Shown one piece after another: positions 8,429 through 14,613 of a DNA stretch of 64,000 nt; positions within the stretch are counted from its first letter, which is position 1, and every line of letters starts with the position of its first letter. Both the position numbers and the translations under genes were made by a program. The notes under the pieces were generated by a model. That model was not told the origin of the DNA. It made no database searches and was given only the letters and a program-made list of their open reading frames with translations. Source of the DNA: Candidatus Cloacimonadales bacterium (GTDB taxonomy: Bacteria > Cloacimonadota > Cloacimonadia > Cloacimonadales > JAIOQZ01); the NCBI GenBank assembly GCA_963674825.1, contig OY771587.1:1888001-1952000 (forward strand). The letters are read 5' to 3'.

Positions 8429-9322
8429 ATGGCCAGGATAACACAGACCCTTTCTGATGAAGTCATCGCGCGGCTGGACCGCTTCAATCTGCGTGCTCGT
8501 CACATCGTGGAAGGCTTCATGATCGGTCTGCACAAGTCACCCTATCACGGCTTCAGCGTGGAATTTTCCGATCACCGGCAATATAATCCCGGCGACACCA
8601 TCCGCAATATCGATTGGAAGGTATTCGCCAAGACCGAACGCTACTACATCAAGCGTTACGAAGAAGAGACCAACCTCAAATCGTGGATCATCCTCGACCA
8701 CAGTAAATCGATGGGCTATACATCGGGAACGATAACCAAACTCGACTATGCCAAAACACTTGCTTCCGCGCTTTCATACCTGATGGTGTCGCAGCAGGAT
8801 GCCGTCGGCCTGCTGACTTTCTCCGATAAGATCGATGGTTATATTCCGCCGCGCGCCATGCGCAGCTATCTGGATATCATATTCAAAGAGCTTATTGAAA
8901 CCCGGCCAGACAGTGGAACCAACACCATTCAGACGCTGCACAGCCTTGCCGAACGCATCAAGAAGCGCAGTCTGATCATCCTCATCTCCGATCTACTGGA
9001 CGACCCGGACAACATCCTGCAAGGGTTACGTCACTTCCGGCACCAGAAGCACGAAGTGATTCTCTTCCACATACTGGATAAGCAGGAGCAGGAGTTCGAT
9101 TTCAAGAAGGAAACGCAGTTTGTCGATGCGGAGACCGGCGAAAAGATCACCGTGTTTCCCTGGCAGATTCGCAAGGATTACCTGGAGCAATTCCACGGCG
9201 CGGCCGACTACCTAAAGCAGAAATGCCACGAATACCGCGTGGAATACAATCCCATTACCACCGATACGCCCTTCGAACAGAACCTGATGAACTACCTGAT
9301 CAAACGCAGCCGCCTGCATTGA
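8429..9322 (+). CDS. DUF58 domain (vWA-like) protein
   Basis: GLHKSPYHGFSVEFSDHRQYNPGD..IDWK, EEETNL, DHSKSM, LISDLL. Confidence 0.93.
   Translation: MARITQTLSDEVIARLDRFNLRARHIVEGFMIGLHKSPYHGFSVEFSDHRQYNPGDTIRNIDWKVFAKTERYYIKRYEEETNLKSWIILDHSKSMGYTSGTITKLDYAKTLASALSYLMVSQQDAVGLLTFSDKIDGYIPPRAMRSYLDIIFKELIETRPDSGTNTIQTLHSLAERIKKRSLIILISDLLDDPDNILQGLRHFRHQKHEVILFHILDKQEQEFDFKKETQFVDAETGEKITVFPWQIRKDYLEQFHGAADYLKQKCHEYRVEYNPITTDTPFEQNLMNYLIKRSRLH
9111..9322 (+). repeat. Direct repeat copy 1: last 212 bp of the DUF58 gene
   Basis: Matches 12304..12515 at 198/212 positions by hand alignment, with no gaps. Confidence 0.95.
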
Positions 9323-9370: not shown

Positions 9371-11758
9371 TTAATGGAAAGGCTTAATATTGGCATTCGG
9401 GCCGAAATTTTCTTTCAATGACGTAAAAATATTTCTTGACTCGTAAAAACCATTCACATCATCATTCCTATTAAGAAGAAGCGTATAGAGTCCTATGTAT
9501 CTATCGATAAACTGGTTATATTGCTGAAGTCCCCAAAATGTCTGCCTGCGCCCCCTTTTCAAAGTCTCCATAAGGTGCTTATTCTTATTGATATACTCTT
9601 TGAAGAAACGTAAATATGTAATATGCTCTGTGACGATTTGATGGATGTAAAACATCTTTGATCCACTCGCTGTTGTTGAGCACCATTTAGATTCAAGAAA
9701 TTCTTGATTTGTCAACTTGATGTCGTCTTTTAAGCAGGTAAGAATCTTATCGTATAGAATACACACTCTCTTATATACACTTTTCACCACAACAACAAAC
9801 TCGTATGTTTTTTCTGGATACTTCATGTCACGGTTCTTATCCTTGTCTTGTTCATTAGGGTAATATGGTATTTTATTAAAAGCCAGATAGAGTGGCACAA
9901 TATATTTATTTGATCTTGAGCAATTAAAGAACTCAAAATTTGTTGAAATGCGATCAATGAAATACTTTCCCAAAGGAGTCAGTCTAATAAAGACCATATC
10001 TTTCTTGGACCTAAAAATGGTGTCAATGATCTTTTCATCGCTCATATTCTTCTGGAGGCTATCAAGTTGTTTCTTTGTCCAATCCTTATAATCAAGCACG
10101 ATGAATCGCTGCCAGTCTCCCTCTTTTGCCCGATAAAGTTGCTTCAGAGTGTCCGATAGCTTGAAGAGGGCTCTATATTGATGCGAAAAATCGCTATTGT
10201 AAGAATCCTCCAAATCTTTTAAGGTAGTAGTGCATTCGTAACCTCCATACGAAGAATTCCGAATAAATGTCAGCACCATACGCTCTAGGCTACATTTCTG
10301 GTTTTTTACGCTTGAGCTTGGCAACGCTATTTGTTTGAAATTATCGTTGTTTATTAAGCTGAAAAAATATACAGTAAAGTCCATTATACTATTACACGGA
10401 AAGTTCTTTGATATTGCTTCATCCTCTGGCCGATCATTTAATGCCAGCTCTTCAAAAAGTTTACTCCACTCAGCCCCAAAGATATCGAAATTGTTTGGAT
10501 TAACGAGGGTTGTCCTTTCCCTTAGCATTTTTAATGTTGCACTTACTCTGTTTTCTTCCAAGTCGTAATCGGAACTAGCACAGCGAAGGGATTTCATAAA
10601 TTTCGTTGAATCATTATTAAAAATGGATGGAAGCCATTTGTCTCGTTTCGTATTATAACCTGCAATATTTGTCCAAGAATTGTAAAGTTTAAAGAGTCCA
10701 AGCTCTTTTTTTTCTTCACTTTGCCCATTTGTGATGTATTGATATCGTTTACGCTGGATATCAAATGTGCTTGAAAGCTTTGAGAGAGTAGATATCTGAG
10801 ATTTATTGCTATATTGTTCAGCAGCTTCAGGCGGTACCAGATTTGAGTAAACATTTCGGTAGACTAAAATAAACTTTACCCTTTCTCTCCAATCAAAACT
10901 AGACACTTTAGGAATGATCTCTTTAATATTGCTTGTAACTTCAAACAAAATTCTCCACAATGGGATTTGTAAAAACCTGAAATCGATACCATCAAGATTA
11001 TCAAATACAAGGTAACATCCCTTAAATTTAAGTAATTCAGATTCAATGACAGACGTGACGCAGAACAACAATAGTTGACCTATCGGATTTAACATGTTAT
11101 ATATTTTTTCGACTGCATCAACTTCACCTGGCATAAACTTCGACACTAAAAGAGCTTTCTTCACATCCTCTTCAGTTATCTTCTTCTGACGCCCTAGATT
11201 AGTTCTATCGTGCAATACTGAGAGAGTCAGGTTATTATAGTGGTCAATAAAATTTTCACAAAGTACCCTATCCTTGAAACGCATATCCCAAAGAAGATTG
11301 ATTACTATATCTCTAATTTCAGGATGGGCTCGAATCTTTTCTAGAAGATATATCTTAATCGTTCTGAAGAAAATAGTCTCGCTTTGCTCATTCCTTTTAA
11401 ACTCTGTTCCTCCCTGGAAAGAAAGAAGCGGATTAACAATAACAGGATTGAAATCATCTTCTAGAAACGTGTTAAAAAACTGCGCTGTTGTTTCCTTGCG
11501 AAACAAACTATTGATCAAAGTAGATTTACCAAGCTTTGCGTAGCCTGTCACAATATTTATATAGGACTTATTTGACTTCTTGTCAGTTATCGAGCTGATC
11601 AACTTCTCCCTGAAAATCCTAAAATCCCTGTCAGCAATGAAGAAGTCCTGATAAAACAATTTCTCAAACTCACTTTGCTTGGCCTCGCGTTCATCAAAGT
11701 AGTTTTTATCATATGGGCTAAACTCTAAAACATTGGAATCTTTCTGCAAGTATTTCAT
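9371..11758 (-). CDS. Large hypothetical P-loop NTPase with probable C-terminal winged-helix region
   Basis: Walker A IVTGYAKLGKST, Walker B-like YLVFDNLD, a following strand FILVYR, and a wHTH-wing-like FIRLTPLGKYFI. AT-rich codon usage. Confidence 0.7.
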   Translation of the reverse strand: MKYLQKDSNVLEFSPYDKNYFDEREAKQSEFEKLFYQDFFIADRDFRIFREKLISSITDKKSNKSYINIVTGYAKLGKSTLINSLFRKETTAQFFNTFLEDDFNPVIVNPLLSFQGGTEFKRNEQSETIFFRTIKIYLLEKIRAHPEIRDIVINLLWDMRFKDRVLCENFIDHYNNLTLSVLHDRTNLGRQKKITEEDVKKALLVSKFMPGEVDAVEKIYNMLNPIGQLLLFCVTSVIESELLKFKGCYLVFDNLDGIDFRFLQIPLWRILFEVTSNIKEIIPKVSSFDWRERVKFILVYRNVYSNLVPPEAAEQYSNKSQISTLSKLSSTFDIQRKRYQYITNGQSEEKKELGLFKLYNSWTNIAGYNTKRDKWLPSIFNNDSTKFMKSLRCASSDYDLEENRVSATLKMLRERTTLVNPNNFDIFGAEWSKLFEELALNDRPEDEAISKNFPCNSIMDFTVYFFSLINNDNFKQIALPSSSVKNQKCSLERMVLTFIRNSSYGGYECTTTLKDLEDSYNSDFSHQYRALFKLSDTLKQLYRAKEGDWQRFIVLDYKDWTKKQLDSLQKNMSDEKIIDTIFRSKKDMVFIRLTPLGKYFIDRISTNFEFFNCSRSNKYIVPLYLAFNKIPYYPNEQDKDKNRDMKYPEKTYEFVVVVKSVYKRVCILYDKILTCLKDDIKLTNQEFLESKWCSTTASGSKMFYIHQIVTEHITYLRFFKEYINKNKHLMETLKRGRRQTFWGLQQYNQFIDRYIGLYTLLLNRNDDVNGFYESRNIFTSLKENFGPNANIKPFH

Positions 11759-12186
11759 GGGCGTTGTCCTTGATTGTTGGCGACGATGTACTCGCTTAGG
11801 GCTATAATCCTTTTCCTCTTGGATTCCGTAATTTGATGGACATTTTCGATTTTAGAGGTCTCTTCGAGGAGATCGTAAAGCCCCTGGATCTCATGCTGGA
11901 TTTGTGATCGCCGCAATGGCCGGTAATGCGTTAAAAACTTGTGATATATATCGATATTATACACATTCAGTAGTCGCTCGTAATCAAGCTTGTTATCAAC
12001 AAAGATTTGTGACTTGATTTCAATATAAAGATTTGTGAGGTTATCTGCTCGGTTATCGTTCCGTTGACCGATACTTGACCAAAGACTGAATGCAACCTTG
12101 ACAAGATGCACAGTAACCATAACTATCAAAACCATGATAAGAAGAGACAGACTACCTTGAAATATTGATTTGATTAATTGATCCAT
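11755..12186 (-). CDS. Small hypothetical protein with an N-terminal TM helix
   Basis: Hydrophobic residues ~12-36. Its stop overlaps the NTPase start (ATGA), which suggests translational coupling. Confidence 0.75.
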   Translation of the reverse strand: MDQLIKSIFQGSLSLLIMVLIVMVTVHLVKVAFSLWSSIGQRNDNRADNLTNLYIEIKSQIFVDNKLDYERLLNVYNIDIYHKFLTHYRPLRRSQIQHEIQGLYDLLEETSKIENVHQITESKRKRIIALSEYIVANNQGQRP

Positions 12187-12303: not shown

Positions 12304-12515
12304 AAACGCAGTTTGTCGATGCGGAGACGGGCGAGAAGATCACGGTGTTCCCCTGGCAGATTCGCAAGGATTACCTGGAGCAATTCCACGGCGTGGCCGA
12401 TTACATCAAACAGAAATGCCACGAATACCGCGTGGAATACAATCCTATTACCACCGATACGCCCTTCGAACAAAATCTGATGAACTATCTGATCAAACGC
12501 AGCCGCTTGCATTGA
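12304..12515 (+). pseudogene. Orphan 3' fragment of the DUF58 gene (direct repeat copy 2)
   Basis: Encodes TQFVDAETGEK...LIKRSRLH*. An in-frame TAG lies at 12288-12290 and there is no start codon between it and the fragment. Confidence 0.9.
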
Positions 12516-12524
12516 TGCGTTCTA

Positions 12525-13202
12525 TTACTGGTTGATAATCTCCTGTGCTTCTTCCTTGTCGTCGCTGTAGGTGAAGGCTGAGATGATATTGTGCGAATTC
12601 TCACGATCGACAACCATCGGATAAAGGAGACGCAGTGCGGCGATCTGGTCGTCGGAATAGGTCAGGACGGTGATAACACGCACGGTTTGATCCACGGTGA
12701 AATGATTGCGTTTGGCAGCCGACCGGATGACATTGAGTTGGTCGTCCGCAAAACTTTCGTTCCGAATCTGGTTCAGGAGATTGGAGAAATCGGCTTCATT
12801 CATTGCTTGTGAGGTAGGAGCGGATGTCTCCGAAATAACCGGTTCATCCGTCGTGTCGTTGAAGTTGACGTTCAACGAAATGCTCGATGTGGTCGAACTG
12901 CTTGACGTGGTAACTTGAACATGTTCGTCGGTTGGCAGGCTTCCCAGCATGGCGAAAATCTCGTCCATAAGCTTCTTTGCCTTCATGTCGCCGGTTCGCC
13001 CGAGTTTATCCTTGTAGAGCGATTCCAATTCTTCCAGCTTGAGCCCGATATTCTCGACGATCTGACCGGACGATACCGTTCCATTTTGCGTTGTACCGGA
13101 TATCTCTACACTGACTTCCCCGCCGGGTGTTTTAAAGACGATTTCGTCCGCCGTCAGCATTGCGGCGAATAGGAATAGCGCGATTATAATGGTTATTTTC
13201 AT
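12525..13202 (-). CDS. Secreted DUF4476-domain protein
   Basis: Signal peptide; C-terminal MNEADFSNLL..ESFADDQL..FTVDQ..LYPMVVDREN..AFTYSDDK pattern. AGGAGG RBS. Confidence 0.75.
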   Translation of the reverse strand: MKITIIIALFLFAAMLTADEIVFKTPGGEVSVEISGTTQNGTVSSGQIVENIGLKLEELESLYKDKLGRTGDMKAKKLMDEIFAMLGSLPTDEHVQVTTSSSSTTSSISLNVNFNDTTDEPVISETSAPTSQAMNEADFSNLLNQIRNESFADDQLNVIRSAAKRNHFTVDQTVRVITVLTYSDDQIAALRLLYPMVVDRENSHNIISAFTYSDDKEEAQEIINQ

Positions 13203-13383: not shown

Positions 13384-14526
13384 TTACAGCGTTGGAAGAT
13401 ATTTGTGTACCAGCCAGTTCTTCATGTTCTCGTCTCTGCCGAAAGCTTCGTAGAACATGAACAGTCGCAGGCACCCAAAGAAAAACGCCTGCTGACGGAT
13501 ATCCTCGCGTTGTTCCTCGTCTGGCGAATCGAAGTAATAGCGCTCGAACAGCTCCCATACCCGAAACGCCAGCTCTGGCTCCATACCTACGGCGCGTTCC
13601 GATATATGTGTTTGCCGGCTGCAATAGAAGATGTTGTAAATTTGCCCCACATCGAACATGGGATGGCCCAGCGAGAAGTCACCCAGGTCAATCAGACGAG
13701 GCTCACCGTCTTGTATAAGTATGTTACTGGTGTGAAGGTCTCCGTGAACGCAAGTGTCCACTTCCGGTATAGCGAGGACCTTCTCCAAGATCAATGAGCG
13801 CTGCTTATCATCGAGGAAGTCCACTGTTTGAATAGCTTTCTGACAGGCATCACGGGTTCTGGAGAAAACAGCAGGGTTTCCTTTTGTGGTGTGAATAAGC
13901 TTGCATACGTCGGAAAACATACGAACAAGCTCTTCCAGCCTATCGGGGTTTTCCACGATCAGTTGCGAAAGAGTCTTCGCGTTGAGCATCTCATACAGGA
14001 TACCTTTACGCCGTTCATGAGCCACAATATCATATGAAATAGCCGTAGGCAGTCCGGCTACGAAGGCGGCGCGCGCATATGCTTTTTCTCTTTCCGCAAT
14101 CTCGTCCGAAACGTGTTCGAAATACAGTTTGAGCAGCGTTTCATCGTCCACCCGATAGCACTCGCCCGTCACCCCACGCGCAATGCACTCCAACCCAGCG
14201 ATGGACACCTGACGCAACATCGGCTCGATATGCATGATATCTGTGAAGCCTGTGGTGGTGAATATCTCCATTATGGGGGCGGGTACGTTGATGATGCTCA
14301 AGCTTCCTTTCGCGGCCAGCTTCTTGTGAACGGCGAGCAGTACGCGCAGCCCGGCACTGGAGATAAATCGAAGATCGCCAAGGTCTGCTACCAGCCGTAC
14401 GTTGTTTTCAACCTCTTTTATGAGATCGGCTTCCAGCGCTGGCGCTGTGAAAGAGTCGATTCGACCGGCGAGGAATACTTTCAGTTGGTTGTCTGTTCTT
14501 TCTGTTTTCATTTTGTACCGATCCAT
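13384..14526 (-). CDS. STAS (anti-sigma antagonist) domain fused to an APH/choline-kinase-like phosphotransferase
   Basis: GRIDSFTA...DLRFISSAGLRVLL (STAS with the conserved Ser), then LLKLY, HGDLHTSNI and LIDLGD. Start uncertain (14526 or 14511). Confidence 0.85.
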   Translation of the reverse strand: MDRYKMKTERTDNQLKVFLAGRIDSFTAPALEADLIKEVENNVRLVADLGDLRFISSAGLRVLLAVHKKLAAKGSLSIINVPAPIMEIFTTTGFTDIMHIEPMLRQVSIAGLECIARGVTGECYRVDDETLLKLYFEHVSDEIAEREKAYARAAFVAGLPTAISYDIVAHERRKGILYEMLNAKTLSQLIVENPDRLEELVRMFSDVCKLIHTTKGNPAVFSRTRDACQKAIQTVDFLDDKQRSLILEKVLAIPEVDTCVHGDLHTSNILIQDGEPRLIDLGDFSLGHPMFDVGQIYNIFYCSRQTHISERAVGMEPELAFRVWELFERYYFDSPDEEQREDIRQQAFFFGCLRLFMFYEAFGRDENMKNWLVHKYLPTL

Positions 14527-14613
14527 TTTATTGATTCCTGCGTGCACTTCGTTATCAATCCGATCGAGAAAAACCAAATGAACTAACGGATCAATCGCGG
14601 TCATCTGTATAGT

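Follow-up and report, generated by a model that had tools for sequence, protein, structure and literature searches.

What does a GC-poor pair of genes do that stands, as an islet, behind a host gene in the genome of a Candidatus Cloacimonadales bacterium? We addressed this question for the two genes at positions 9371-12186 of a 64,000-nucleotide (nt) stretch of that genome (the window). The pair is mobile, rare and tightly coupled; one gene encodes an NTPase of the Orc1/STAND class, the other a small protein for which one membrane helix is predicted. The family to which it belongs probably serves phage defence, and we tentatively read the islet as a two-gene cassette acting as a split anti-phage sensor–effector pair, in which the NTPase would be the switch and the membrane protein the effector. 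The genes and the motifs of the NTPase lie at the following positions.

12186-11755, minus strand: 143-amino-acid (aa) protein, one predicted membrane helix (residues 15-33) followed by ~110 residues predicted to be cytoplasmic
11758-9371, minus strand: 795-aa P-loop NTPase of an unnamed family; core with long helical insert, helical lid, probable winged helix and C-terminal helical domain
11519..11545, minus strand: Walker A, residues 72-80, GYAKLGKST (family consensus GYSGNGKTT)
10991..11014, minus strand: Walker B, residues 249-256, YLVFDNLD, from sequence and alignment
10856..10873, minus strand: core strand FILVYR, from residue 296 and ending in R301, which is invariant in 20/20 sequences
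9947..10288, minus strand: probable winged-helix region, residues ~491-604, ending in RLTPLGKYFI (from 592), from helices and strands of the model
9374..9946, minus strand: C-terminal helical domain, residues ~605-795, from alignment and model

An initial annotation, made from the letters and translated open reading frames (ORFs), had described the same two coupled genes of 143 and 795 aa with an ATGA overlap and had named the motifs beginning at residues 72, 249, 296 and 592, all of which we confirmed. K78, D253, N254 and R301 are common to the window NTPase and all 19 aligned relatives, and the motifs are therefore more than chance resemblances; the FILVYR strand with R301 presumably marks the sensor-1 position. 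At an overall identity of ~20%, the window NTPase keeps K78, D253, N254, D256, R301, R338, N381, R493, E609 and H712, and E609, L623, H712 and Y715 of the C-terminal helical domain are kept across the family. The residue right after Walker B is E in 15/19 relatives and G in the window protein (position 257), and R707 and R720, present in 19/19 relatives, are replaced there by Q and K. The distance from Walker A (K78) to Walker B (D253) is 131-197 residues in 20/20 sequences, and this stretch is helical in the model. With Walker A already at residue 72, the window NTPase has no N-terminal effector, and its hydropathy maximum of 1.42 (19-residue window) gives no membrane helix.

On sequence comparison, the 795-aa protein falls, on a long branch, into an NTPase family that is rare and has no name. 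Neither protein had a significant match in Pfam, NCBIfam or PADLOC (a copy from 2023), none of the NCBIfam or PADLOC models matches more than 2/20 family members, all weakly, and no known non-defence family fits the NTPase in these scans, in keeping with the statement in the initial annotation that no named system could be assigned. Word-index protein searches returned only the two window proteins themselves, whereas an exhaustive phmmer search of 1.84 billion representatives yielded four relatives of 743-780 aa (24-27% identity, E 2e-6 to 3e-4), which align with the window NTPase over its whole length. Searching with the NTPase alone as query, we assembled a set of at least 21 loci, the loci found to which counts over 21 refer: the family alignment gave seven genome loci (of 195 pattern stretches), five in Bacteroidota and two in Bacillota, and metagenomes gave at least 14 (at least 16/593 pattern stretches), and 0/599 pattern stretches from viral contigs hold a relative. 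Among them, L046 is a near copy of L039, and of the relatives P0003 is encoded at L048 and P0005 at L055. These scans detect only exact short patterns, and the family must therefore extend beyond the loci found.

Within its own phylum the NTPase is very patchily distributed. A single-protein search matched in 1/232 genomes; a profile search matched in 102/232, full-length in only one, the window's own genome (G000), and the remaining matches (best E 6e-7), which cover the P-loop alone, were dropped. The window NTPase forms a long branch outside the Bacteroidota core, its exact placement being unsure. In the ESM Atlas both window proteins fall into unnamed clusters, the small protein being poorly recognised, and neighbours of the NTPase include clusters with 11-14% PF07693 members. 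A literature search gave no description of this pairing of NTPase and membrane protein, but the tables of STAND clades in PMC13581612 may include the NTPase without a name.

A small second gene accompanies the NTPase at most loci. The window's small protein has a single strong hydrophobic stretch at residues 15-33 (Kyte-Doolittle 2.63), a predicted helix that bears out the one N-terminal transmembrane helix proposed earlier; ~14 residues precede it, there is no signal peptide, and the protein search found no homologue. When the co-occurrence of homologues was checked, a small co-oriented gene was found directly upstream of the NTPase in 18/21 loci, at a spacing of -29 to +36 nt (16 measured loci); in the other loci, the small gene lies downstream (L058), the sequence is cut by a contig end (L055) or there is none (L038). 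Fourteen of the 18 upstream genes belong to one small-protein family: its profile was built from nine, L042, L045, L046 and L051 match at E 2e-18 or better, and L047 shows only a short tail (E 0.004). Other small upstream genes also encode a hydrophobic stretch, strong in L056 and L057, 1.73 in L043 and weak (1.06) in L044. Core partners show a likely signal peptide, an outer part of only ~25 residues, a single helix, basic residues and 111-139 further residues, and the window protein shares this layout of an anchor followed by 110 residues. Because the window protein is unlinked to them by sequence, and deep-branch partners also differ, we regard the partner as one architecture and not as one proven family.

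NTPase and partner pairwise identities correlate (Spearman 0.68, 0/5000 permutations, 11 pairs), which shows co-inheritance only. The genome of L042 has one copy of the partner family, beside the NTPase, and that of L038 has none. At L038 itself an EAD11 domain (an effector-associated domain, EAD) is fused to the NTPase N-terminus (E 1e-9), in a genome with ten EAD11 matches over the cut-off; extra N-terminal sequence occurs only there and in L058, where the extension is unnamed. EADs are proposed to recruit effectors (PMC8195603). A Pneumovirus_M2 match on one of 14 partners scanned (E 1.4e-5) was treated as chance. As a separate observation, the ends of the two Bacillota partners (L043:25-450 and L044:5452-5925) appear by eye to resemble a small winged helix, unlike those of the Bacteroidota partners.

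Structure prediction places the NTPase in a fold class. In the model the P-loop core carries its helical insert between Walker A and B, and a helical lid, the probable winged helix and the C-terminal helical domain come after the core; this is the AAA+/STAND-type P-loop fold that had been suggested as a check. Foldseek ranked RdrA chains of RADAR best (E 2.4e-5 to 3.4e-4), followed by ORC subunits, Apaf-1, Cdc6/Orc1 and BrxC. With VIA-align, an ORC chain (Z 11.7, root-mean-square deviation (rmsd) 5.3, 245 aligned), BrxC (Z 11.6, rmsd 6.6, 310 aligned) and ORC-Cdc6 (Z 11.4, rmsd 5.0, 255 aligned) tied at the top, with NRC2 (10.6), AVAST5 (10.3), Apaf-1 (10.1) and Avs3 (9.9) next. By the model, the NTPase is clearly predicted to be an Orc1/Cdc6/STAND-class AAA+ P-loop ATPase, with the nearest named family not settled. 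The winged helix–turn–helix that the initial annotation had proposed fared less evenly: a winged helix is probable, and VIA-align alignments to Cdc6/Orc1 and archaeal ATPases run to residues 586-606 (586-602 for Cdc6/Orc1 and SSO1545), but it lies in a low-confidence part of the model (block predicted local distance difference test (pLDDT) 39-72).

The C-terminal part, folded alone, reached a pLDDT of 69; Foldseek found nothing for its model at E<=0.001, and the structural matches obtained were all of a generic helical kind (best Z 9.1, rmsd 4.9, 134 aligned). An R-x4-H motif in this domain, present in 19/19 relatives (Q707 in the window protein), suggested a HEPN RNase effector. The motif begins the helix 704-725, and the residue after R is V, I or L in 19/19 relatives; in HEPN domains it is found where helix 3 ends, and the residue following R is usually polar (PMC3710099). 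On motif position and the hydrophobic residue we set this candidate aside; no HEPN structure was among the best 50 structural matches listed for the C-terminal model, which does not thereby exclude the fold.

Neighbouring genes were examined at the 12 loci with usable flanks, where 76 of 91 neighbouring ORFs were compared with PADLOC (matches at E<=1e-8). Defence genes stand beside five of the 12 (L039, L041, L044, L048 and L057), namely bSEFIR, Old, dCTP deaminase, capP/type I REase/E1 and AbiD, so that the check on defence neighbourhoods raised at the outset returned a positive count. A background of 1.53% in PMC13581612 (section 15) counts whole systems and is a rough guide only. Integrases lie beside four of the 12 (L039, L040, L041 and L044; Pfam, 41 selected proteins), no transposase is a constant neighbour, and the cassette is GC-poorer than its flanks in 12/12 loci. 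Repeats also occur near family members. At L048 (3344-9317), right beside the family member, an HsdR fragment of type I restriction is repeated (387 nt, 90%) on either side of a block with ThiF/E1, multi-ubiquitin and capP-like genes; at L039:5644-9273 and L042:8413-13262, repeats of 80-320 nt stand between GC-poor single-gene cassettes, preceded in L039 by an integrase, and look like a cassette array in Bacteroidales.

How the pair came to its present site can be read from the islet borders.

8429..9322, plus strand: DUF58 (vWA-like) host gene, the insertion target; 297 aa; Pfam PF01882, E 1.6e-50
9111..9322, plus strand: left copy of a 212-nt repeat; consists of the final 70 codons, with the stop, of the DUF58 gene that is in working order
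12304..12515, plus strand: right copy of the 212-nt repeat, an orphan DUF58 3' end 93% identical to the left copy
12525..13202, minus strand: DUF4476 host gene; Pfam PF14771, E 2.8e-26; direct neighbour of DUF58 in the same-genus genome G002

The bounding direct repeat was absent from the first reading, which had rightly named the two genes as the entire cargo: they fill the 2,981 nt between the att-like copies, with no integrase or recombinase gene among them. Three same-genus genomes (G001, G002 and G003), whose DUF58 orthologues are 85-92% identical, have no islet at this site. The right repeat copy runs into the DUF4476 junction exactly as DUF58 does in the empty-site genome G002, and in G001 and G003 other genes of host-like GC follow DUF58. 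The AT-richness claimed for the genes is pronounced, the islet having a GC of 0.359 against a genome mean of 0.496 (sd 0.028), and none of the sampled 2,980-nt genome segments (1-kb steps) is as GC-poor. In short-read contigs of two runs of one sample, possibly the source of the window, the islet has the depth of its flanks (41-43 against 36-44) and is therefore no artefact of assembly. The contigs of three runs, from which rare variants drop out, showed no joint spanning the islet, and an empty allele suggested by run X3 (share 0.39) was rejected for low cover. A promoter scan was uninformative (14 sites, 10.0 +/- 2.7 expected).

Within the repeat, 11/13 changed codons are silent, as against 21% expected for random single changes (boundary codon left out), and the two copies must therefore have diverged while coding; the spare tail did not arise by duplication and decay at its present site. 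We infer that the two-gene islet is foreign DNA, and that DNA of a relative, equipped with a DUF58 tail of its own, entered by recombination in the form of a small circle or a linear fragment. Such recombination with DNA of a related strain or species carrying its own DUF58 3' end would have left the DUF58 gene whole and the spare tail behind. The window's genome holds a second integrase-free, tail-duplicated islet (L079, G000:C1:3839099-3841022), with a 58-nt duplicated gene tail (two differences, both silent) and a cargo of an N6/N4 DNA methylase and an EcoO109I-type restriction endonuclease. It emerged from a direct-repeat survey of G000 in which 34 of 153 nearby pairs had GC-poor middles and were listed; the 13 inspected were mostly paralogous genes or short intergenic repeats, and one was this second tail duplication.

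Other GC-poor insertions came to light in the same genomes. Single GC-poor genes stand between short intergenic direct repeats at G000:C1:444726-446230 (L080; 313 aa, 135-nt repeats) and G000:C1:2971306-2972371 (L081; 286 aa, 62-nt repeats), neither product having a Pfam match at E<=0.001. At G000:C1:3604432-3623737, a 152-nt repeat encloses a GC-poor island of 17 kb that has a helicase-like gene, receiver domains and unknown proteins. One region takes different cargo in sister genomes: in G002 (L033:7626-10331) a GC-poor 901-aa NACHT protein (PF05729, E 1.2e-14) is encoded between a vWA gene and an esterase gene, and the same spot in the window has a gene for a 279-aa membrane protein (7283-6444). 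Elsewhere in the window, positions 13384-14604 (minus strand) encode a STAS domain fused to an aminoglycoside-phosphotransferase-like kinase domain.

If the pair is a sensor and effector, the NTPase would at rest be in a nucleotide-bound off state. If a phage product attached to its winged-helix or C-terminal helical domain, the NTPase would exchange its nucleotide and assemble into a ring. Putatively, this ring would engage the ~110-residue cytoplasmic domain of the small protein and cluster the membrane helices, which would damage the membrane and abort infection. Our main reason for tentatively assigning the switch to the NTPase and the effector role to the membrane protein is that the NTPase chain includes no effector and that, in the absence of the partner, an adaptor of the effector-recruiting kind is fused to it. 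A bolder version, possible though doubtful, is a split bacterial NLR (nucleotide-binding leucine-rich-repeat receptor): a compact STAND-class switch without effector or repeat sensor would assemble a single-pass membrane protein, the product of a separate gene, into a killing pore, the partner would be interchangeable with a fused EAD adaptor, and the cassette would spread without an integrase, bringing a replacement gene tail.

Several observations weigh against a sensor–effector pair. The argument from the swap of adaptor for partner rests on one locus, L038, and the signal peptide and short outer segment of the core partners would also suit a sensor or anchor. The window's small protein shows no detectable homology to the partner family (hhalign probability 0.2-0.3%, hmmsearch E 0.14), and its NTPase keeps 37/53 highly conserved columns and is without E257, R385, R707 and R720. 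The full-length NTPase model is weak (pLDDT 59, predicted template modelling score (pTM) 0.62), and its RdrA matches have a TM-score of ~0.2. No PADLOC model fits the NTPase or the partners, six of the 12 flanked loci (L038, L042, L049, L050, L056 and L058) have neither defence gene nor integrase, and the defence-neighbour count of 5/12 stands without a control set. The candidate defence cassette of NTPase and membrane effector proposed in the initial annotation is thus supported in part, by fold, pairing and defence context, and none of the three refuting conditions named there arose, but the window's small protein could not be linked to the partner family by sequence.

Four rival explanations bear on these points. 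The roles might be reversed, with the membrane protein sensing envelope events (adsorption, DNA injection) or serving as an anchor and the C-terminal helical domain of the NTPase being the toxic effector. We consider this unlikely, though it accounts for several features: polar C-terminal residues (E609, R707, H712, Y715 and R720) are invariant in the relatives, as in an active site, core partners have their outer segment, and KAP NTPases fused to unknown regions protect against phage (10.1101/2025.10.07.681051). Yet the R-x4-H motif, at the start of a long helix and with its hydrophobic residue, is unlike HEPN (PMC3710099), the window copy has lost R707 and R720 while its ORF is intact, only ~14 residues precede the helix of the window partner, and the EAD11 fusion suggests that the NTPase needs an outside effector. 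It is improbable that the family is a defence system of which the window holds a decaying or inactive copy. The long terminal branch (3.29 changes per column) and the changes in 16/53 highly conserved columns, among them G75K in Walker A and E257G in Walker B, would fit decay, but both frames are intact over 938 codons with the ATGA coupling kept, key residues from K78 to H712 survive at low overall identity, and another deep member, L058, has changed more (24/57 columns). The insertion is, moreover, far younger than the protein divergence, because the flanking repeats are still 93% alike, which also counts against decay.

Nor do we favour a selfish addiction or exclusion module of mobile DNA, toxin–antitoxin-like or excluding other elements and without an anti-phage role. 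Tight two-gene coupling, the integrases beside 4/12 loci, the repeat-separated cassette arrays at L039 and L042 and TnsC ATPases among the VIA-align matches (Z 9.3-10.4) would suit this explanation, which the defence neighbours, the EAD11 fusion and the lack of a constant transposase neighbour render quite improbable. It is very improbable that the NTPase, tethered to the membrane, is a regulator or signalling ATPase that serves housekeeping or stress responses. Non-defence STAND clades do exist, interspersed with defence ones (PMC13581612, section 5), and the modelled Orc1-like winged helix could bind DNA; a distribution so patchy (full-length in 1/232 own-phylum genomes, scattered in Bacteroidota and Bacillota) and a cassette always GC-poorer than its flanks speak against it.

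Should the sensor–effector reading prove true, the islet would represent a compact two-gene anti-phage design with switch and membrane effector as separate proteins, nearer to the receptor-plus-executioner pairs of animals and plants than to single-chain Avs proteins. About 20 natural pairs, each <3.5 kb, have been identified. The natural swap of membrane partner and EAD11 would, if true, open to experiment the adaptor role that has so far been predicted for EADs. The two cases of integrase-free, tail-duplicating insertion in this genome point to a simple signature by which further defence islets could be recognised in little-studied phyla.

Among known systems, STAND and Avs proteins have a helical domain and a winged helix after the NTPase core. 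The family shares with Avs (Avs3-5, Avs7-21; PMC13581612, which has 589 STAND clades) the Orc1/Cdc6-class P-loop NTPase with Walker A and B, helical and probable winged-helix domains and defence-rich neighbourhoods. It differs in lacking a fused N-terminal effector, except for EAD11 in L038, and a long C-terminal TPR, WD40 or FGE sensor, in place of which stand ~190 helical residues without a Pfam repeat match, and in having the 131-197-residue stretch between Walker A and B and a separately encoded membrane partner. Curated STAND profiles (NACHT, NB-ARC, nSTAND) gave no match at cut-off for the window protein, P0003-P0006, L038 or L058. The RADAR deaminase RdrB, an adenosine deaminase, occurs neither in the islet nor among the 76 neighbours scanned, and the partner is instead a small single-pass protein. 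RdrA (PDB 8hr8, 8fnt) is the top Foldseek match, with similar size and helical insert, and is the longest sequence-profile match among solved structures (weak, E 0.006), but the TM-score is low and PADLOC gave no RdrA match. BrxC of BREX (PDB 9zdx, 9zll) shares the top rank among structural matches to the NTPase core (Z 11.5-11.6, rmsd 6.4-6.6), whereas no other BREX gene lies nearby and PADLOC gave no BREX match.

EAD-linked iSTAND, nSTAND1 and nSTAND2 systems (PMC7159879, PMC8195603) share EAD11 with the N-terminus of one family member, but the neighbourhoods of the family do not constantly include a second STAND or an FGS/GT4 domain, and no MoxR-vWA pair lies beside the homologues. The inactive STAND of vWA-MoxR-iSTAND (PMC7159879) contrasts with a Walker A lysine in 20/20 sequences, and DUF58 is here the insertion target; the available text of both papers describes no operon of NTPase and single-pass partner of this kind. 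PF07693, the KAP family, was not listed at E<=1 for the window protein or at E<=0.1 for P0003-P0006, and the membrane helix lies on the second gene, with none in the NTPase, unlike KAP and Tmn proteins. The large insertion between Walker A and B is a feature of KAP NTPases as well. It is also stated for YobI, and KAP NTPases (PifA, EF_KAP) and YobI-family Tmn (10.1101/2025.10.07.681051, PMC13001434) likewise are membrane-linked P-loop NTPases tied to phage defence; because PifA-like members also lack membrane helices, their absence alone does not exclude KAP kinship. The pair lacks features by which membership was tested in Avs (fused effector, repeat sensor), KAP/Tmn (membrane helices, profile match), RADAR (RdrB) and iSTAND systems, and yet it would work in the manner of the Avs and KAP defence NTPases.

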